Of a stretch of 64,000 bases of DNA, positions 7,932 to 61,124 are shown piece by piece. Location: NCBI GenBank assembly GCA_030610855.1, contig JAUWQY010000004.1, positions 9,382 to 73,381 on the forward strand. The letters run 5' to 3'. The stretch is from Dehalococcoidia bacterium. GTDB taxonomy: Bacteria; Chloroflexota; Dehalococcoidia; GIF9; AB-539-J10. The notes under the pieces were generated by a model, which saw only the letters and a list, made by a program, of their open reading frames with translations, was not told the origin of the DNA and searched no databases. Both the position numbers and the translations under genes were made by a program. Position 1 is the first letter of the stretch; each line of letters starts with the position of its first letter.

Positions 7932-9731
7932 TCATGAACCGATGTAGAACCCTTCAGGATCGAATAGCCTCAACAAAGTCAACTCGTCTGTGGCTATCGG
8001 CTCGGCCTTCGTCAAAGTCCGTGCCACCTCCAATTCCCAGCCGACCCTCTCCCTTATGTTGGCTATGGCTTCTTCTGCTGTCTGTTCGGGACGGGCCGGA
8101 ATGTAGGCCGTCAGGGCAAACGTCTCTCCCCCGCCGAGCTTCTCGAAGACCCCGACATCCGTAACTACCGTCGTTACTCTATTCCCGGGAAACGTGATGT
8201 AGGGCACCTTTTCCACCAGCCTCTGCTTCCCTGAGTTGACTACTACTACCGTCTCTCTGTTACCACTAGCGATATCGTTGGCTCCTCCGGAGCCGACAAG
8301 ATACGCCAGACCCGGTATTTTCGTAGAGTTGACATTTCCACGTCTATCTATCTGCCCTGCTGCCAAAACCCCCAGGCACTGGTTTGAAGAGCCACCGACG
8401 AAGACTCCGAGCAGAGTTTCGATGTTGTTCAGTATTTTGCAGGTCGGCATGTTGTGCTGACTGAATATGAACGGATCCGAGGCTCTGGGCAGGTAACCGT
8501 ACATGCCTATCTCGGCCATCAAATCGACGTCACAGCCCCTTCCCTTAAGCCTGTATGCTGTCAGCCACGCCGCCAGGTTTGACAGTCCCACACCGGCCAG
8601 TATCGTCTTGTATCCTCCGGCAATGAATTTGCACTCTATGACCTGCGAAGCAGCAATCACCATCTTCTCTGCTGAGTTCGGTTCCCTCTCAGAATCCAAC
8701 TTCTTTATCCCGGCCAATGCCATATCTTTCCACGACTCCGAATGAGCCTTCCCCTTAAGGTAAAGAAGCCTCTCGCTACCGAGTTGCGATAGGTACTCAT
8801 GGTGGTCTCTGCAACCCAGAATCCAGCCCTCTATCCACTTCGAGAATTTCTCGGCATCCCTTGAAGCTTCCGTGACATCAATGATGAACTCGTAGTCCTC
8901 GAAATAGTGCTCGAAGTCAGGCAATCCGCAGTTTGTCATTCCGATGGGATGGGCCCCATAGGGCACTTCACAAACGGCCCTGACCATGTAAGCAGGAATG
9001 CGGACAAGGTGAGAGTGTCTGCGTATGTACTCAGTAGAAACGACCTTCTCCACACTGACGATAACTCCTTGTTTAGCTCCCCAAGCCCCAAAGACATCAG
9101 CCCCCAGGGGGTATGTCATGATCGTGTTTCCACAGCGGTCCGCACAAACGCCATGAACCAGTGCCATATCAGGCCTGAGCGCCTTCATAAGCCCTATCTT
9201 CTCGCCAGGGGCGAACGGGTCATCGACGACCGCAAATGACTCCTTATTCTCTTCTTCCATAGAGCTTCCCATAATTGACCGGGTAGGGATTACGCTCCAT
9301 CCCATCGCTCCCGCCAGCAGTCTCTGGGGGATGGTGAGCATCGTCCAGTTCTCGAACTCCACTTCACCCGAGAGGTATGCCTTGTGAGCCAGAGGATTCG
9401 GTCCTGGCGATGGATATGTGTCGCCGATGAAACTGGCTATGATCTTCCTTGCCAGCCTTCCATGAATGAGAGATATCATGGTGGCTGTGATGCCATTGTT
9501 TATGATGGTGAACTCCGGATCCTGACCCCAGAACTCCCTCACAAGCTGGTAGAACAGAGCTCCGCCTCTTCCGCCGAAATTGAGGGACATCCCTTTCCTG
9601 ATATGCTCTCTTATAGCTTCACCAAGGGAGCAAACCTTGTCCTCTCCTTCAACCAGGGGAAGTCGAAACTTCGAGTCTATGAAAGCTCTCAAATCTTCTG
9701 CGTTCACTAGCATCCTTTTGTGTCGACCCAT
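7932..9731 (-). CDS. fused class I CoA-transferase (glutaconate CoA-transferase A- and B-subunit-like halves)
   Basis: The 599-aa protein has an N-terminal half resembling GctA/AtoD-type subunit A. The C-terminal half resembles subunit B and carries a catalytic-Glu-like segment (LMAEIGMYGY) and GSGGANDIA. Confidence 0.75.
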   Translation of the reverse strand: MGRHKRMLVNAEDLRAFIDSKFRLPLVEGEDKVCSLGEAIREHIRKGMSLNFGGRGGALFYQLVREFWGQDPEFTIINNGITATMISLIHGRLARKIIASFIGDTYPSPGPNPLAHKAYLSGEVEFENWTMLTIPQRLLAGAMGWSVIPTRSIMGSSMEEENKESFAVVDDPFAPGEKIGLMKALRPDMALVHGVCADRCGNTIMTYPLGADVFGAWGAKQGVIVSVEKVVSTEYIRRHSHLVRIPAYMVRAVCEVPYGAHPIGMTNCGLPDFEHYFEDYEFIIDVTEASRDAEKFSKWIEGWILGCRDHHEYLSQLGSERLLYLKGKAHSESWKDMALAGIKKLDSEREPNSAEKMVIAASQVIECKFIAGGYKTILAGVGLSNLAAWLTAYRLKGRGCDVDLMAEIGMYGYLPRASDPFIFSQHNMPTCKILNNIETLLGVFVGGSSNQCLGVLAAGQIDRRGNVNSTKIPGLAYLVGSGGANDIASGNRETVVVVNSGKQRLVEKVPYITFPGNRVTTVVTDVGVFEKLGGGETFALTAYIPARPEQTAEEAIANIRERVGWELEVARTLTKAEPIATDELTLLRLFDPEGFYIGS

Positions 9732-33760: not shown

Positions 33761-36457
33761 ATGGCAATCAACTGGCACAATCTTACCGCCGAAGAGGTCA
33801 TAAGCAAACTCAACTCCTCACGTTCGGGGCTTGCTCAAGAAGAGGCAAGGAACCGACAACACGAGCACGGTCCTAACGAGTTGACGGAAAAGGGCAAGAG
33901 ACCGGCAATTATGCTCTTTTTGCGCCAGTTCGCCAGTCCTCTTATCTACATACTGCTTGCTGCCGCGCTGATTGAGTTCTTTGTTATGCGGAAGCCCACC
34001 GATGCCTCGGTCATCCTGGCTGTGGTCTTCATCAATGCCGTAATCGGCTTTGTGCAGGAAGGCCGGGCTGAACAGGCTGTGGAAGCACTGAAGAGGCTGA
34101 CCGTGCCCCAGGCCAGGGTGTTGAGAAATGGCACCACTGTTCCCTCTCCCGCAAGTCACCTGGTTCCCGGTGACATCGTCGTGCTGGAGGCAGGCGATAA
34201 GATTCCCGCCGATACCAGGCTGATTGAGGCAGCAAGTCTATCTGTGGACGAATCCATCCTCACCGGTGAATCGGTTCCGGTGGAGAAGTTTACCGGTGCA
34301 ATTGAAGGCGAGGCAGTCGTAGCTGACATGGGCAATATGGCGCATATGGGCTGTGCTGTAGTTGCCGGGCGTGGGGTGGCTGTGGTCACGGCCACCGGTA
34401 TGAACACTGAGATTGGCAAGATTAGTGCCCACGTGCAGGAAGTCAAGCCCCCGCCTACGCCGCTGCAACGTAACATCGCCACGTTGGGACGCTACATCGG
34501 TATCGTGGTGCTCGCCATCATCGCGGTACTGATAGCCATCGGAGTGGCGAAACAATACACATTTGAGGAGATGTTCACGTTCGCGGTTGCCGCTGCAGTT
34601 TCCGCGATTCCTGAAGGTCTGCCGGTAACGGTGACAGTAGTCCTCGCCCTGGGAATGAGGCGCATGGCGAAGAGGCATGCGCTTATCAGGAAGTTGCCAG
34701 CCGTGGAGACCATGGGCGCCGTCACCGTCATCTGCTCGGATAAAACGGGCACGTTAACCGAAAGCGAGATGACCTCACGGCAGATATACCTGCGGGGCAG
34801 AACAATAGAAATCACGGGAGTTGGCTATCGTCCGGAGGGTGAGTTCCTGGAAAACGGACAGAAACTTGAACCTGCAAAGGACGAAGACCTGCTTCTAGCC
34901 CTGAGAATCAGCGCCCTGTGCAATGACTCTGCCCTGAAATCAGATGGCGATAAGTATCAACTACTGGGTGACCCCACTGAGGGGGCTTTGCTGGTGGCCG
35001 CTCTTAAGGCAGGGCTGGACCAGAGAGCATTGCATGAAGAGCAGCCGCGACTGGCCGAACTGCCGTTCCTCAGCGAGAAGCGCTATATGGCTACGCTTCA
35101 TCGCGCTCATAACGGGAAAGACCGCAAAGCAGTGGTGTACGTGAAGGGGGCCGTTGACAGGGTGCTGGCGATGTGCGGCAAAGTGCTTGAAAACGGGACC
35201 CCTCAGGAGATGACCCCTGAGAAAATGGCGCACATTGACAAAGAGAACCTTGAGATGGCAGCAAAGGCACTGCGCGTGATGGCTCTCGCCTATGCCGAAT
35301 GTTCTCCCACCCCAGAACAGCTTTCCCATGAGCACCTTGACGGCAGTTTGACTCTCGTCGGTCTGGTGGGGATGATTGACCCGCCCCGTCAGGAAGCCAA
35401 GCAGGCGGTTGCCGACTGCAAGCGTGCCGGCATCAGAGTGGTGATGATAACCGGGGACCAGAAGGCCACGGCGGTCGCCATTGCCGAAGAACTGGGACTG
35501 CCGGCTGGCAAAGCGGTGACCGGTCTAGAGCTGGAGAAGATGAGTGATGAAAAGCTCAGTGTCGAAATAGAGAAAATCTCAGTCTTCGCCCGCGTCGAGC
35601 CGCTCCACAAGCTCAGGATAGTCAATGCCCTGAAGTCAAAGGGCTACACCGTCGCCATGACCGGGGACGGGGTCAATGATGGCCCGGCCCTGAGAAGCGC
35701 CGACATCGGCATAGCCATGGGTATCAAGGGTACGGATGTCGCCCGCGAAGCCTCCGATATCATACTCACCGACGATAACTTCGCCTCCATCGTCTCTGCC
35801 GTCGAAGAGGGAAGGGTCATCTTCGACAATATCCGCCGTTCCGTTTTCTATCTCCTGAGCACCAATGTGGGTGAGTTGCTCACCTGGACGCTGGCAATTC
35901 TGGCCGGCATTCCCCTGCCCATCGTCGCTGTTCAGATTCTATGGATAAACCTGGTTACCGATGGTGTCTACGTCATACCGTTAGGCCTGGAACCAAAGCA
36001 CCGCAATGTACTGCAAGGACCCCCGCGTCGAGCAAAGTCAGGAATCGTTTATAGCGGAATGCTGGCAAGGATCGCTTTTGTTGCCCTGTTCATGGCACTG
36101 GGTACATTCTTTATCTTTGGATGGGAACTGCCTCGCGTTGGGCTGGATAAGGCCAGGACAATAGCTTTCTCCGTGCTGGTTGCCTTCCAGTGGTTCAATG
36201 CCCTGAACGCACGCTCCGACCGGCAGTCGATCTTCAAGCTGGGCTTTCTCAGCAATCCTCTCCTGCTCGGTGGAATAGGACTGGCCATTCTGCTCCAGGT
36301 GATGGTAATCTACGCGCCTCCGTTCCAGAGCCTGTTCTACACGGTGCCTTTGAACGTCAACGACTGGATAGTCATCGTTCTTGTGGCAGGAAGCGTTGTG
36401 GTGGCAGAAGAGGTGCGCAAGCTGGTGGCGCCGCGCATCTTCGATCGGGGCAAATAG
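33761..36457 (+). CDS. P-type cation-transporting ATPase (P2, Ca2+/Mg2+-type)
   Basis: TGES, ICSDKTGTLT, IPEGLP in TM4, MITGDQ and GDGVNDGPAL are present. I prefer ATG 33761 (MAINWHNLTAEEV) over the TTG at 33689. Confidence 0.9.
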   Translation: MAINWHNLTAEEVISKLNSSRSGLAQEEARNRQHEHGPNELTEKGKRPAIMLFLRQFASPLIYILLAAALIEFFVMRKPTDASVILAVVFINAVIGFVQEGRAEQAVEALKRLTVPQARVLRNGTTVPSPASHLVPGDIVVLEAGDKIPADTRLIEAASLSVDESILTGESVPVEKFTGAIEGEAVVADMGNMAHMGCAVVAGRGVAVVTATGMNTEIGKISAHVQEVKPPPTPLQRNIATLGRYIGIVVLAIIAVLIAIGVAKQYTFEEMFTFAVAAAVSAIPEGLPVTVTVVLALGMRRMAKRHALIRKLPAVETMGAVTVICSDKTGTLTESEMTSRQIYLRGRTIEITGVGYRPEGEFLENGQKLEPAKDEDLLLALRISALCNDSALKSDGDKYQLLGDPTEGALLVAALKAGLDQRALHEEQPRLAELPFLSEKRYMATLHRAHNGKDRKAVVYVKGAVDRVLAMCGKVLENGTPQEMTPEKMAHIDKENLEMAAKALRVMALAYAECSPTPEQLSHEHLDGSLTLVGLVGMIDPPRQEAKQAVADCKRAGIRVVMITGDQKATAVAIAEELGLPAGKAVTGLELEKMSDEKLSVEIEKISVFARVEPLHKLRIVNALKSKGYTVAMTGDGVNDGPALRSADIGIAMGIKGTDVAREASDIILTDDNFASIVSAVEEGRVIFDNIRRSVFYLLSTNVGELLTWTLAILAGIPLPIVAVQILWINLVTDGVYVIPLGLEPKHRNVLQGPPRRAKSGIVYSGMLARIAFVALFMALGTFFIFGWELPRVGLDKARTIAFSVLVAFQWFNALNARSDRQSIFKLGFLSNPLLLGGIGLAILLQVMVIYAPPFQSLFYTVPLNVNDWIVIVLVAGSVVVAEEVRKLVAPRIFDRGK

Positions 36458-50095: not shown

Positions 50096-50288
50096 GTAGA
50101 GGGAGCCAACCCTGTTCTTCTATCCACCTCCGGGGCATTCTCCCTCAAGAGGAGCACGAGAAAACATGGTTTCTTCCTGGCTTTTCAGGTCGGTCGGCAA
50201 GCCCCACTCAGCCCTGGCAACAGATTTGTTCACCTGTCCCTGATGCGGATGAGATCGTGTGAAGATCTCGAAAAGTCAGAAAAAACCG

Positions 50289-50318
50289 TTGACAATTCCT
50301 TTGGACAGGTGGTACAAT
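50289..50318 (+). promoter_or_regulatory. near-consensus sigma70-type promoter (TTGACA-N18-TGgTACAAT) with upstream A-tract
   Basis: TTGACA lies at 50289-50294. The extended -10 element TGGTACAAT lies at 50310-50318. An A-rich tract (gaaaagtcagaaaaaacc) lies immediately upstream. Confidence 0.7.
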
Positions 50319-50324
50319 AGTAAC

Positions 50325-50447
50325 ATAGGATTGGCAGCCATAGGATTGACATGGGGTTGGTGGTCAAGTGTGTGCGTCAGAGGGTTGTGATAGTTCCCAC
50401 GAGGCTCAGCCGAGCACATATAGATATGCGATCTCGGCTCTTTTTTT
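50325..50447 (+). ncRNA. candidate small RNA (~120 nt), family unknown
   Basis: The unit is bounded by the promoter above and an intrinsic terminator. It starts with two exact CATAGGATTG copies. It contains no credible ORF. Confidence 0.5.
50407..50447 (+). terminator. intrinsic terminator
   Basis: A two-tier stem (aGCCGAG..CATAT-ag-ATATG..CTCGGCt) is followed by TTTTTTT at 50440-50446. Confidence 0.7.
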
Positions 50448-50492
50448 CTGTCACAGTGAAATCAACGCTCCCTTTCGCAACCCACGGCTGTT

Positions 50493-50652
50493 AGAAATGT
50501 AGTTTGCCCAGTTTATTGGGCTCGGCCCTCTGTCATTGCGAGGCAGCCGAAGGCAGCCAAAGTAATCTCGTGGAGGGGTATGAGATTGCCGCGCCCCGAC
50601 AAGTCGGGGCTCGCATGACAGTGGGAAACAGCTTGATGAATCAAGCAACTAC
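50493..50652. repeat. ~160-nt repeat module, copy 1 (class-A core 50532-50619 plus shared flanks)
   Basis: It aligns by eye with 62593-62754. The alignment includes a 48-nt identical run (AATCTCGTGGAGGGGTATGAGATTGCCGCGCCCCGACAAGTCGGGGCT) and a 19-nt identical run (TGATGAATCAAGCAACTAC). Confidence 0.85.
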
Positions 50653-50671
50653 GAAAATTCGGAGGTGAAAT

Positions 50672-52252
50672 ATGAAGCTGACACTGAGTTCGAGGAGACA
50701 CCATTACCTGGCAAGACTTAGCATCTTTTTGATTACGGTAGCCTTAATTGCAGGGATGGTGGGCTGTGAACCGAGTTGTAGTTGTACTCCTCCTCTTCAG
50801 TACGATCTCACCATCTACAGCACAACTGGAGGATCGGTGACCACACCTGGCGAGGGGGGTTTTACCTACGATGCTGGCACGGCGGTTGACCTGGTGGCCG
50901 AGGCGGATGAGTGTCACGAGTTCGTCAACTGGACCGGCGACACTGTCGCCGACCCCGACTCTGCCACAACCACCATCACCATGGATGAAGCTAAGACTGT
51001 GACCGCCAACTTTGCCCTGCTGAGCTACGACCTTACAGTAGACAGCACAGATGATGGCGAGGTAACCACTCCTGGTGAGGGCACTTTTACCTATGACTGC
51101 GGCACGGTGGTTGACCTGGTGGCTGAAGCTGAGATGGGCTACAGCTTTGTCGAATGGTCTGGCGACGTAGGTACCATTGCTGACATCGATGCAGCCGAGA
51201 CCACCATCACGATGAGCGGCAACTATTCTATCACCGCTAACTTCGGCCCGTTCGCCGGAGGGAGTGGAACAGCCGAGGATCCCTATCAGCTTGCGGATTG
51301 GTACCACCTTGATAATCTCCGTAATTTCCTAAGCAGCTACTTCATCCTCACAGACGACCTCGATTTTGGCTCTATCGGCTATACGGAGCTGGCGAGTGAG
51401 ACAGGCAACGAGGGAGAAGGCTGGGAGCCAATTGGAAATTTGACTGACCCATTTGCGGGTAGTTTCAACGGCCAGGGGTACGAGATAAGTGACCTGTTTA
51501 TCGACCGCCCTGACGAAGATAATGTTGGGCTTTTCGGTATTCTCGATGTAGCAGGGGTCATCGAGAATGCCGGCGTGATAAACGGCAATGTGACTGGTTA
51601 CAATAATGCTGGTGGTCTGGTGGGAAGGAATGACGGCACCATATTGAACAACACCTATTACACGGGCAATGTGACTGGCAACGGCAATGTTGGCGGTCTG
51701 GTGGGATACAATTTCTTTGGCACTGCCAACGACGCCTATTCCAGCGGCATCGTGACTGGCCAAGACAATGTTGGCGGTCTGTTCGGATGGGACAGGGGCA
51801 CTACGAGCGACTCCTATTCCACCAGCAGCGTGACTGGCCAAAACAATGTTGGCGGTCTGGTGGGAAAGAATAGCGGCACTGCGAGCAACTCCTATTCCAC
51901 CGGCAGTGTGACTGGTGATGATAATGTTGGCGGTCTGGTGGGAAGGAATGACGGCACTGTAAGTAACTCCTATTCCACCGGCGGTGTGACCGGCACTAGT
52001 AATGTTGGCGGTCTGCTGGGACGGAATACCGCCACTGTGAGCAACTCCTTCTGGGACACCGAGACCAGTGGACAAGCTACTTCAGATGGAGGGACGGGCA
52101 AGACTACGGCGGAAATGCAGGATATCGCTACCTTCTCAGGAGCAGGCTGGAACATAATCGCAGTCGCCAATCCTAGCACGCGCAACCTTTCCTACATCTG
52201 GAATATCGTTGACGACGAGACCTATCCTTTCCTGAGCTGGCAGCCTGTTTAA
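50672..52252 (+). CDS. membrane-anchored surface protein: two InlB-B-repeat-like domains plus six GLUG-motif repeats
   Basis: There is an N-terminal TM helix (LSIFLITVALIAGMVG). Two ~85-aa modules are present (YDLTIYSTTGGSVTTPGEG... and YDLTVDSTDDGEVTTPGEG...). NVGGLVG (GLUG) units then repeat every 26-27 aa. Confidence 0.8.
   Translation: MKLTLSSRRHHYLARLSIFLITVALIAGMVGCEPSCSCTPPLQYDLTIYSTTGGSVTTPGEGGFTYDAGTAVDLVAEADECHEFVNWTGDTVADPDSATTTITMDEAKTVTANFALLSYDLTVDSTDDGEVTTPGEGTFTYDCGTVVDLVAEAEMGYSFVEWSGDVGTIADIDAAETTITMSGNYSITANFGPFAGGSGTAEDPYQLADWYHLDNLRNFLSSYFILTDDLDFGSIGYTELASETGNEGEGWEPIGNLTDPFAGSFNGQGYEISDLFIDRPDEDNVGLFGILDVAGVIENAGVINGNVTGYNNAGGLVGRNDGTILNNTYYTGNVTGNGNVGGLVGYNFFGTANDAYSSGIVTGQDNVGGLFGWDRGTTSDSYSTSSVTGQNNVGGLVGKNSGTASNSYSTGSVTGDDNVGGLVGRNDGTVSNSYSTGGVTGTSNVGGLLGRNTATVSNSFWDTETSGQATSDGGTGKTTAEMQDIATFSGAGWNIIAVANPSTRNLSYIWNIVDDETYPFLSWQPV
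51572..52056 (+). repeat. in-frame tandem coding repeats (six GLUG units of 26-27 aa)
   Basis: NVTG..N.GGLVG.N.GT..NSYSTG recurs about every 78-81 nt within the CDS at 50672-52252. Confidence 0.8.
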
Positions 52253-53597: not shown

Positions 53598-54602
53598 ATG
53601 CTCTACATTCTTCACGGTCAAGACGGGTTCTCCCTTAATCAAGCTCTGGAGAAAATCAAAGCCGGCCTGGGAGAAAGGGAGATGATAGCGGCTACCACCA
53701 CCAGCTTAGATGGCCGGAATCTCACATTGATTGAACTCAGAAACAGTTGCGACACCGTTCCCTTTCTATCCTCGCATCGCCTGGTCATAGTCGATGGCTT
53801 GCTGGCACGCTTTGAGCCAAAACAAAGTAGGCCACGATCCGGCAGACGTGTTACGAAATCCGGAGGCGGGCTGGGCGAGTGGGAAGACTTCGCTGATTAC
53901 ACCAGGCACATGCCGGCAACCGCTGTGCTGGTCCTGGTTGACGGGGAGGTGAAGGGACACAATCCTATGTTAAAGCAGCTCTCGCCCCTGGGTGAAGTGA
54001 GAGTTTTCCCCCTGTTGCGCGACAGGAACCTGAAGGCCTGGATACAGCAACGGGTGAAGGAAGAGGGCGGCCGCATCACTTCCCGTGCCGTGGATTTGCT
54101 CGCTGAGCTCATAGGTGGAGACTTGTGGGCGATGAGCGGTGAAATTCAGAAACTACTTCTTTATTGCCAGGAGCGACCTATCAGTGAAGATGATGTCGGA
54201 CAACTGACAAGTCATGTCCAGGAGGCTAGCATCTTTGCCCTGGTGGACGCGGTGGCTGAAGGGCGAACCGAGTTAGCTCAGCGGACGCTTCACCGGCTAT
54301 ATCGTGACGGTATGGCACCGACGCATATCCTGGTCATGATTACCAGGCAATTCCGCCTCATAGCCCAGGCCAAAGACCTGGAGCCGGGACTATCCCGCCT
54401 TCAGATTCAGGATAGGTTAGGGCTGAAATCAAGCTATCCCCTGGACAAAACGCTTCGTCAGGCCAGATTGTACGATCTCGAGGGCGTAAAACGGGCTTAC
54501 GGCAAGCTCCTGGAAACAGACTTAGCCATCAAAACCGGTAAATATAGCGATAAACTGGCCCTGGAGCTCCTGGTAACAGAACTCGCCTGCCCCGATTCGT
54601 GA
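53598..54602 (+). CDS. holA: DNA polymerase III delta subunit
   Basis: The protein is 334 aa, with MLYILHGQD, an N-terminal delta domain and a helical C-terminal domain (IFALVDAVAEGR...A...L..L). The call is moderately confident, by eye. Confidence 0.75.
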   Translation: MLYILHGQDGFSLNQALEKIKAGLGEREMIAATTTSLDGRNLTLIELRNSCDTVPFLSSHRLVIVDGLLARFEPKQSRPRSGRRVTKSGGGLGEWEDFADYTRHMPATAVLVLVDGEVKGHNPMLKQLSPLGEVRVFPLLRDRNLKAWIQQRVKEEGGRITSRAVDLLAELIGGDLWAMSGEIQKLLLYCQERPISEDDVGQLTSHVQEASIFALVDAVAEGRTELAQRTLHRLYRDGMAPTHILVMITRQFRLIAQAKDLEPGLSRLQIQDRLGLKSSYPLDKTLRQARLYDLEGVKRAYGKLLETDLAIKTGKYSDKLALELLVTELACPDS

Positions 54603-60990: not shown

Positions 60991-61124
60991 TAGCCATCGA
61001 CCCTCGGGCGGTGAGCTGGAGACCCAGGTAGCTGAAAGTTCCGCTTGGATCGGCGATGACCGAGACGGACAAGAGGAGGTCCTTTTGTGACCCTCTCGGT
61101 TAGGCCGAGAGGGTTTTCTTGTTT
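60991..61124 (+). promoter_or_regulatory. ~134-nt structured 5' leader ending in an intrinsic terminator (candidate riboregulator / pan-motif-like element)
   Basis: The leader lies between the promoter and the first gene of the DUF2520-panD-panB-panC cluster. The sequence gaccctcgg (61001-61009) resembles the 5' arm of the terminator, so an alternative pairing with the 3' arm is possible. Confidence 0.45.
61090..61124 (+). terminator. intrinsic terminator within the pan leader
   Basis: A 10-bp stem (ACCCTCTCGG-ttagg-CCGAGAGGGT) is followed by TTTCTTGTTT, 33 nt before the ATG at 61157. Confidence 0.7.

Follow-up and report, generated by a model that had tools for sequence, protein, structure and literature searches.

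A genus-restricted family of promoter-leader cassettes upstream of envelope-protein genes in Dehalococcoidia, with features of attenuator leaders

Introduction

Attenuation leaders, such as those of pyrBI and trp and those that depend on a protein, consist of a promoter, a leader of about 100 nucleotides (nt) and a hairpin with a U tract ahead of the regulated gene. The 5′ strand of the terminator can also enter an alternative, competing pairing, and in pyrBI a short open reading frame (ORF) runs through the terminator. Here we analyse an element with a similar layout, whose core lies at about positions 50345-50487 of a 64,000-nt stretch (hereafter the window) of contig JAUWQY010000004.1 from a Dehalococcoidia bacterium (assembly GCA_030610855.1). 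The initial annotation of the window described this element as an orphan unit encoding a free-standing small RNA (sRNA) candidate, with a terminated leader of the next gene as an alternative. We find that the unit is instead one copy of a multi-copy family that is linked to downstream genes, most of which encode envelope proteins. The family differs from described attenuation leaders in that no regulatory codons were identified and the covariation of its possible switch is not significant, and also in that a genome has many copies, which precede genes that are not homologous but belong to one functional class, and which differ in the number of tandem units at their 5′ end.

Several other described systems resemble the cassette in individual properties. 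In the JUMPStart/ops-RfaH system and the LoaP/UpxY leaders, a conserved leader likewise precedes many genes for surface components, and the regulon is set by a cis-acting sequence in the 5′ untranslated region (UTR). Here, however, the genome has a single NusG-family gene (one PF02357 match), and the cassette has single genes downstream rather than long operons. An ops-like GCGGTAG is present in the cassette consensus, but its GCGG is 55-62% conserved, and the window copy reads GTGATAG. We rejected RfaH/ops- or LoaP-type antitermination because there is neither a specialised NusG paralogue nor a conserved ops-like motif. The Listeria LhrC1-5 RNAs and the streptococcal csRNAs likewise come in several copies of 100-150 nt per genome, have strong promoters of their own, CU-rich segments and 3′ ends that resemble terminators, and are linked to surface proteins. 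Those RNAs are free-standing and act in trans, whereas the cassette is coupled to the gene downstream of it, often as the sole promoter of that gene, in a genome in which we found neither Hfq nor complementarity to a target. Finally, pneumococcal BOX elements and the 5′ regions of Mycoplasma vlp and vsp genes are modular, have variable numbers of tandem units and are repeated before surface-protein genes, many of which share a signal-peptide sequence. Unlike these, the cassette has a fixed orientation and a promoter of its own in each copy, and is also found before genes for unrelated membrane proteins and small cytosolic proteins.

A multi-copy family confined to one genus

A search of the bacterium's own assembly (1.63 Mb in 76 contigs, 95% complete) with positions 50260-50460 of the window returned three more copies of the 3′ two-thirds of this region, with 75-85% identity, and promoter matches lie beside two of them. 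With a profile search, the number of copies in this genome came to five clear and two degenerate ones, each with its own TTGACA/-10 promoter. With blastn, 20 of 25 genomes of the same genus gave a match to the element; 16 genomes that represent other families of the order gave none. A covariance model made from 25 copies matched 44 of 52 genomes of the genus (1-16 matches per genome among the matches listed, at E ≤ 0.001), had one weak match among 67 genomes from other genera of the same family, and had no match in 298 genomes from 190 other Dehalococcoidia genera. An exact-pattern scan of public genomes found the motif in metagenome-assembled genomes labelled Dehalococcoidia or Dehalococcoidaceae. 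The initial annotation had made its proposal dependent on conservation in relatives, and this conservation proved to be strong, but limited to one uncultured genus of Dehalococcoidia.

When the whole window was compared with Rfam 15 at gathering thresholds, only the pan motif at 60992-61072 was found, and a search of 50100-50700 at E ≤ 10 gave only two chance-level matches, sR9 and HOTAIR_1. The unit thus matches no Rfam family, whether SRP, 6S, tmRNA or RNase P RNA, a riboswitch (c-di-GMP and ydaO included) or a known leader. Our search of the literature on Dehalococcoidia sRNAs and terminators found nothing specific. We read the element as a new genus-restricted promoter-leader family, and as a candidate RNA family that is absent from Rfam.

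When orthologous loci are compared segment by segment, identity within the core (from GGUCAAG to +125) ranges from 70 to 98% and mostly reaches 80% or more, which equals or exceeds the identity of adjacent coding DNA. In the upstream flank (-250 to -110), identity is lower, at 34-49% for six of seven orthologous pairs (75% in the other), and the spacer 3′ of the core is 26-66% identical in five of the seven. As the core is conserved and its flanks are not, it is a discrete element under purifying selection, and not just duplicated DNA. Copies of the element are 70-86% identical to each other and orthologous copies have been kept across species, so the family does not reflect recent mobility or gene conversion. 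This level of identity, the fixed orientation and the lack of any match in phage and plasmid collections also led us to reject a mobile repeat (of the MITE, REP or BOX kind) or a phage- or plasmid-borne element, although terminal repeats were not specifically searched for.

The cassette precedes genes for envelope proteins

We examined 94 copies with enough downstream sequence, and in 79 of them an ORF of the same orientation, of 80 amino acids (aa) or more, lies within the next 400 nt. An N-terminal signal or anchor is predicted for 62 of these 79 genes (78%), as compared with 13% of 872 background ORFs of this genome (p~6e-39), and most of the remaining genes encode membrane proteins. Of the downstream proteins, 53 fall into one surface-protein similarity cluster, many of them with the shared N-terminus described below. 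Pfam domains found among the downstream proteins include InlB B-repeat and GLUG (in the window gene), DUF11, lysozyme-like SLT_3, NHL repeats, RCC1 repeats and DUF4382, and, in membrane proteins, mechanosensitive-channel transmembrane repeats and DUF2339. A conserved divergent regulator gene was not found upstream of the copies, whose upstream neighbours are unrelated and mostly co-oriented.

In the window, a stable hairpin followed by U7 lies between the promoter and the co-oriented gene that starts at 50672 (Table 1), which is the arrangement of an attenuator leader, and a promoter scan detected no other promoter-like site at 50450-50672. The locus is syntenic with one in a related genome (G018:C47), since the same nucleotidyl-transferase gene is found upstream of the element in both. 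In several copies the start codon is only 30-50 nt past the hairpin. For example, in the L017/L036 copy a strong terminator, with a hairpin of -18.5 kcal/mol and U6, is followed about 50 nt on by GGAGG and the ATG of a surface-protein gene. As there is no room for a second promoter here, the cassette promoter must drive the gene through the terminator.

Table 1. Features of the window copy and its downstream gene (positions within the window)
Feature	Position	Strand	Remarks
A-rich UP-like tract	50270-50287	+	Read from sequence; 5′ of the -35 hexamer
-35 hexamer TTGACA	50289-50294	+	Conserved in about 90% of 98 copies
Extended -10 TGgTACAAT	50310-50318	+	18-nt spacer from the -35 hexamer; TG present
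Two tandem 15-nt 5′ units, CATAGGATTGGCAGC and CATAGGATTGACATG	50324-50353	+	Exact-copy search
Best-conserved block: Shine-Dalgarno (SD)-like GGGGTTGGTGG, then near-invariant GGTCAAGTGTGTGC	50353-50375	+	81-97% identity per column, 88 copies
Frame-1 upstream ORF (uORF), GTG start, 44 codons	50368-50502	+	Runs through the hairpin and T tract
Central conserved region GTCAGAGGGTTGTGATAGTTCCCACGAGGCTC	50376-50407	+	No robust covariation
Two-tier hairpin: outer stem AGCCGAG/CUCGGCU, inner stem around conserved loop AUAGA	50408-50439	+	ΔG -11.8 kcal/mol
T7 tract	50441-50447	+	With the hairpin, resembles an intrinsic terminator (attenuator)
C-rich, G-poor conserved tail CTGTCACAGTGAAATCAACGCTCCCTTTCGCAACCCACGG	50448-50487	+	Kept in most copies
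Separate repeat module: mini-hairpin GCCCAGTTTATTGGGC and REP-like palindrome	50493-50652	+	Between leader and gene, outside the family core
SD sequence GGAGGTGA	50661-50668	+	Ahead of the gene at 50672-52252
Gene for a surface protein of lipoprotein type, containing InlB B-repeat and GLUG domains	50672-52252	+	Presumed regulated gene

Promoter and tandem 5′ units

The anatomy of the family was deduced from 98 collected copies, while column conservation and terminators were evaluated on 88 of them. The promoter scores at least 10/12 in about 90% of the 98 copies. Its family consensus is AAAAAACTATTGACAATTyCTT..TGGTATAAT, in which the TTGACA is essentially invariant, is preceded by AAAAAACTA and lies within a wider -35 consensus of cTATTGACAAT. 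The A-rich tract that the initial annotation reported ahead of the -35 hexamer is present in the window copy. Its promoter was also said to be the best sigma70-type promoter in the window; the hexamers are indeed near consensus, with a score of 11/12 and an extended -10 TG in our promoter scan, but four other sites in the window also score 11/12, so it is tied for best and not uniquely so. Transcription is predicted to start near 50325.

The predicted transcript begins with the two exact CATAGGATTG copies previously noticed at 50324-50333 and 50339-50348. Taken alone, this 10-mer is not enriched beyond chance (allowing up to one mismatch, 6 matches were counted where 4.0 are expected), and it has another exact copy, the third, on the minus strand at 53960. 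Across the family, the 5′ end of the transcript has one to five tandem UAAGA-type units of about 16 nt, roughly cUnUAAGAAAUAG, and the duplicated CATAGGATTG is the window's local form of this family-wide repeat, as judged by sequence. Because the number of these units varies, the distance from the -10 element to the core is stepped: 23-29, about 43, 51-60, 74-90 or 105-119 nt.

Conserved core, hairpin and tail

The best-conserved block of the leader has the consensus AAGGUUGGUGGUCAAGUGUGUGC, is free of insertions and deletions, and includes, at 50368 of the window, the GTG with which the frame-1 uORF starts. In the family consensus it is followed by GUCAGAGGGUUGCGGUAGUUCCCAC and then by the hairpin. 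Both the hairpin and the T7 tract of the initial annotation are real, although each is displaced by 1 nt from the position given for it (50407-50438 and 50440-50446). A simple terminator scan did not report this hairpin, probably because such a scan expects a single stem with a loop of 3-8 nt, whereas the stem here is two-tiered. The potential to form the hairpin has been kept across the family, with 78-86% of cells paired as compared with 8-62% in slid registers, and U-G wobbles within it favour an RNA transcribed from the plus strand. The tract after the hairpin is pyrimidine-rich, with at least 5 U in 9 nt in 62 of 88 copies.

Conservation runs past the U tract into a C-rich tail, whose consensus in most copies is CUGCCACAGCAAAAUCAACCCUCCCUUUCG. 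Within the window tail, the segment AAATCAACGCTCCCTTTCG (50459-50477) resembles the 3′ end of 16S rRNA, that is, an anti-SD sequence. More exactly, both the family tail AAAUCAAC(C/G)CUCCCUUUCG and the window tail AAAUCAACGCUCCCUUUCG resemble the organism's own 16S 3′ end GAAUCACCUCCUUUCU (contig C18 of its assembly, about 46380), and because of this close resemblance we consider the tail to be an anti-SD mimic. Based on complementarity, it could pair with the leader segment GAGGGUUG or with the gene's GGAGGUGA.

Alternative pairings within the leader

With an alignment of 25 copies, RNAalifold predicted the hairpin as the sole structure, with some double changes. With 88 copies, the preferred alternative pairs GUGUGUGC with GCACAUAU, which is the 5′ strand of the inner terminator stem. 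This alternative is paired in 90% of cells, but its covariation does not exceed that of shuffled controls. In the nascent RNA of the window copy, the terminator fold, at -32.3 kcal/mol, differs little in energy from the antiterminator fold, at -30.1 kcal/mol. A further potential helix connects the leader to the tail: GAGGGTTG at 50380-50387 is complementary to the tail consensus CAACCCTC, and in the family consensus GAGGGUUG at these positions is complementary to the tail core CAACCCUC, with one mismatch in the window. The GAGGGUUG:CAACCCUC pairing is kept in 72% of cells.

We applied shuffle and slide controls to five candidate helices. All candidate helices are paired far more often than slid registers are. 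In the shuffle tests, covariation was marginal for three helices: that of the terminator 3′ arm with GCCACAG, the helix GAGGGUUG:CAACCCUC and an irregular inner one.

Coding potential of the leader

The initial annotation recognised a single ORF in the unit, of 47 aa at 50351-50494, but the plus strand also has ORFs at 50368-50502 (44 aa, starting with GTG) and at 50259-50390. The 47-aa ORF (frame 2) was rejected as a gene, being broken by TAG in several copies. In the 44-aa ORF (frame 1), a start codon (GTG, ATG or TTG) occupies the first position in 85 of 89 copies, with the SD-like AAGGUUGGUGG located 5 nt upstream, and the median open length is 52 codons, whereas the other two frames reach medians of 20 and 7. 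Under a null model in which substitutions are relocated, 32 of 36 sequences are open in frame 1 where 21 ± 2.9 are expected (z about 3.8). Under a column-profile null this openness is not significant, and past the conserved region frame 1 loses its advantage over the other frames. The frame has no 3-nt periodicity, its third codon positions being the least variable by column entropy, and its ratio of nonsynonymous to synonymous changes (pN/pS) of 0.72 is similar to those of the other two frames (0.83 and 0.60). Public gene calls include neither the 47-aa nor the frame-1 product, and the latter has no Pfam match. Since codon periodicity, frame-specific pN/pS, a Pfam match and a public gene call are all absent, and stop avoidance depends on the null model, a functional protein is unlikely. 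Translation of frame 1 as part of a regulatory mechanism is possible.

Weighing the explanations

The explanation we favour, with a probability of about one half, is that the window unit is a copy of a genus-specific cassette, consisting of a strong sigma70 promoter and a 5′ leader of 125-170 nt, that expresses envelope genes and regulates them in cis by means of an attenuator hairpin. Cis control of envelope genes is the most likely role because the copies almost always sit before genes for surface or membrane proteins. The comparison of the copies also fits the terminated leader of the downstream surface-protein gene, which the initial annotation had put forward as its second choice.

Several observations weigh against this explanation. 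The covariation of the terminator stem and of the antiterminator is no higher than that of shuffled columns, a mutual-information scan of all column pairs in 88 copies found no Watson-Crick covarying pairs in the 5′ core, and the predicted 124-nt RNA of the window does not exceed shuffled sequences in stability (z=0.34). Strong intrinsic terminators (ΔG ≤ -10 kcal/mol with at least 6 U in 9 nt) are present in 24 of the 88 copies, the window copy among them, so that the hairpin of many copies may be mere 5′ UTR structure. Some copies may have arisen when surface-protein genes were duplicated along with the DNA upstream of them. The conserved, GTG-started frame of 44 codons shows no codon-level selection, and among the factors checked (CsrA, Hfq, NusG and Rho) we found no candidate effector.

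Some of these points would suit a constitutive expression leader, in which a strong promoter and a 5′ UTR would stabilise the mRNA of abundant envelope proteins or enhance its translation, as in ompA or S-layer leaders, and the hairpin would serve stability or processing instead of regulated termination. Near-consensus promoters, downstream surface proteins that are likely abundant, hairpins that are weak and U tracts that are interrupted in most copies, and a switch without support from covariation are all in accordance with such a leader. Nevertheless, a subset of copies including that of the window has canonical strong terminators directly before the gene, and a block of about 14 nt that is 85-97% conserved although it has no evident structure points to specific recognition more than to a generic stabilising role; we consider this explanation unlikely, though the most probable of the rivals. 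Attenuation coupled to the uORF, as in pyrBI, appears somewhat less probable again. In this case a ribosome initiating at the GUG at 50368, behind the SD-like AAGGUUGGUGG, would proceed through the hairpin and U tract, and its distance from RNA polymerase would decide whether transcription terminates; the C-rich tail, when untranslated, could also load Rho, which is encoded in the genome. The conserved start codon, the openness of frame 1 described above, stop codons immediately upstream of the start in some copies, and an ORF that spans the terminator and in about 20 copies extends as far as the main gene or into it would all be explained. The codon statistics of the frame speak against it, as does its loss of significance under the column-profile null; moreover, insertions and deletions that are not multiples of three occur and yet the frame stays open, and high conservation extends to the spacer that separates the SD-like sequence from the GUG, although a plain site of initiation would have no need of this. 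If frame 1 were instead the gene of a small protein of 44-57 aa containing Cys and His (VCASEGCGSSH...CHSKINPPFRNPG), its length and conserved start codon would be accounted for, but the absence of amino-acid constraint, among the other deficiencies listed above, makes such a gene very improbable.

The two functions initially proposed for a free-standing RNA are, on the whole, not supported once the family is taken into account. That the copies are independent genes for sibling sRNAs of about 120 nt, which would each possess a promoter and a terminator and act in trans through CU-rich or UG-rich single-stranded segments, has in its favour that the window copy is a complete promoter-to-terminator unit, that the family is multi-copy like the LhrC, Qrr or csRNA siblings, and that sequence conserved without much structure would fit seed regions; a terminated leader could additionally act in trans. 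But the orientation of the copies and their proximity to a gene are strongly non-random, in some copies the gene starts within about 50 nt without an intervening promoter, so that the cassette is the only possible one, and most copies lack a strong terminator while conservation extends beyond the U tract. In addition, Hfq was not found in this genome, nor was an antisense partner or complementary locus for the conserved blocks elsewhere in it. Sibling sRNAs thus seem slightly less probable even than uORF-coupled attenuation. A protein-titrating RNA like CsrB or RsmZ was suggested by the 5′ end of the window copy, where two AGGA motifs occur at a distance of 15 nt. These GGA motifs are particular to the window, however, the family units being UAAGA or UAAGG and often single, and CsrA (PF02599) was not found in this 95%-complete genome while it was detected in control genomes; we regard a titrating RNA as barely credible.

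Proposed mechanism

Termination, regulated read-through and the identity of an effector are what we infer from sequence, and the following steps should be understood in this sense. If the cassette is an attenuator leader, transcription would begin near 50325, and the RNA would start with one or more UAAGA-type units, followed by the highly conserved, apparently unstructured GGUCAAGUGUGUGC... block, the two-tier hairpin and the U/C-rich tract. With the hairpin as attenuator, some transcripts would stop there, yielding an RNA of about 120 nt, and the remaining transcripts would read through into the gene, here that of the GLUG/InlB-repeat lipoprotein at 50672. The balance might be set by a factor that recognises the conserved 5′ block, which could be a protein or a ribosome initiating at the GUG, and one possible route is the GUGUGUGC:GCACAUAU alternative pairing, which would compete with the terminator stem.

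More speculatively, the cassette could represent an undescribed class of cis-regulatory leaders that defines an envelope regulon, in which a single effector, be it a metabolite, a protein or the translating ribosome, would read GGUCAAGUGUGUGC and switch the terminator at, at most, about 16 genes per 2-Mb genome, while the varying number of 16-nt UAAGA units and the anti-SD mimic would tune the response of each gene. We hold this extended version to be possible, but doubtful.

Other features of the loci

The repeat module between the leader and the gene in the window is separate from the cassette, and in related genomes some of its pieces have isolated matches elsewhere (blastn, query positions 147-184).

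The proteins encoded next to the cassette have some features of their own. In about 35 copies (e.g. L031, L061 and L074), as well as at 50672-50767 of the window, otherwise diverse surface proteins share the near-identical N-terminus MKxILSSRRHHYVARVSIFLITVALIAGMVGC, with a twin Arg, a hydrophobic stretch and a lipobox-like Cys. From its composition, this N-terminus looks like a genus-specific export or lipidation signal. Surface-protein genes located upstream of the element in L012, L032 and contig C15 of the bacterium's own assembly encode proteins ending in ...AIIGLLALVSVALAIWATRRRGRGPEYT, a C-terminal hydrophobic helix and, after it, an Arg cluster, which resembles a sorting or anchor signal.

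In five genomes, a variant of the leader is directly followed by a gene for a family of 88-aa proteins (MPCRIGITTDPEARRVYWQ...) with neither a signal peptide nor a Pfam match (own contig C76, about 34743-35100; L016, L022, L099 and L100). At least in the C76 copy, the 3′ hairpin is exchanged for a different one. Moreover, at about 8290-8390 of own contig C67 (L009 2768-2863), a putative ORF of 31 codons with a hydrophobic N-terminus (MGKAFRIVLVSVLVGAMFDGG...) is located between the leader and a gene for a mechanosensitive-channel-like protein.

The pan motif detected in the Rfam scan (RF01749, plus strand) lies in the leader of a pantothenate cluster, and its score of 36.6 bits is close to the gathering threshold of 36.2 bits.

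Significance

For annotation, our results caution that promoter-to-terminator units of this kind should not be called free-standing sRNA genes. The cassette would also provide a concrete element for tests in reporter systems or with metatranscriptomes. Dehalococcoidia lack peptidoglycan and depend on a protein surface layer, and to our knowledge almost nothing has been established on the control of their surface proteome. One conserved cassette that marks 5-16 envelope genes per genome (among the matches listed) would define such a regulon from sequence alone.

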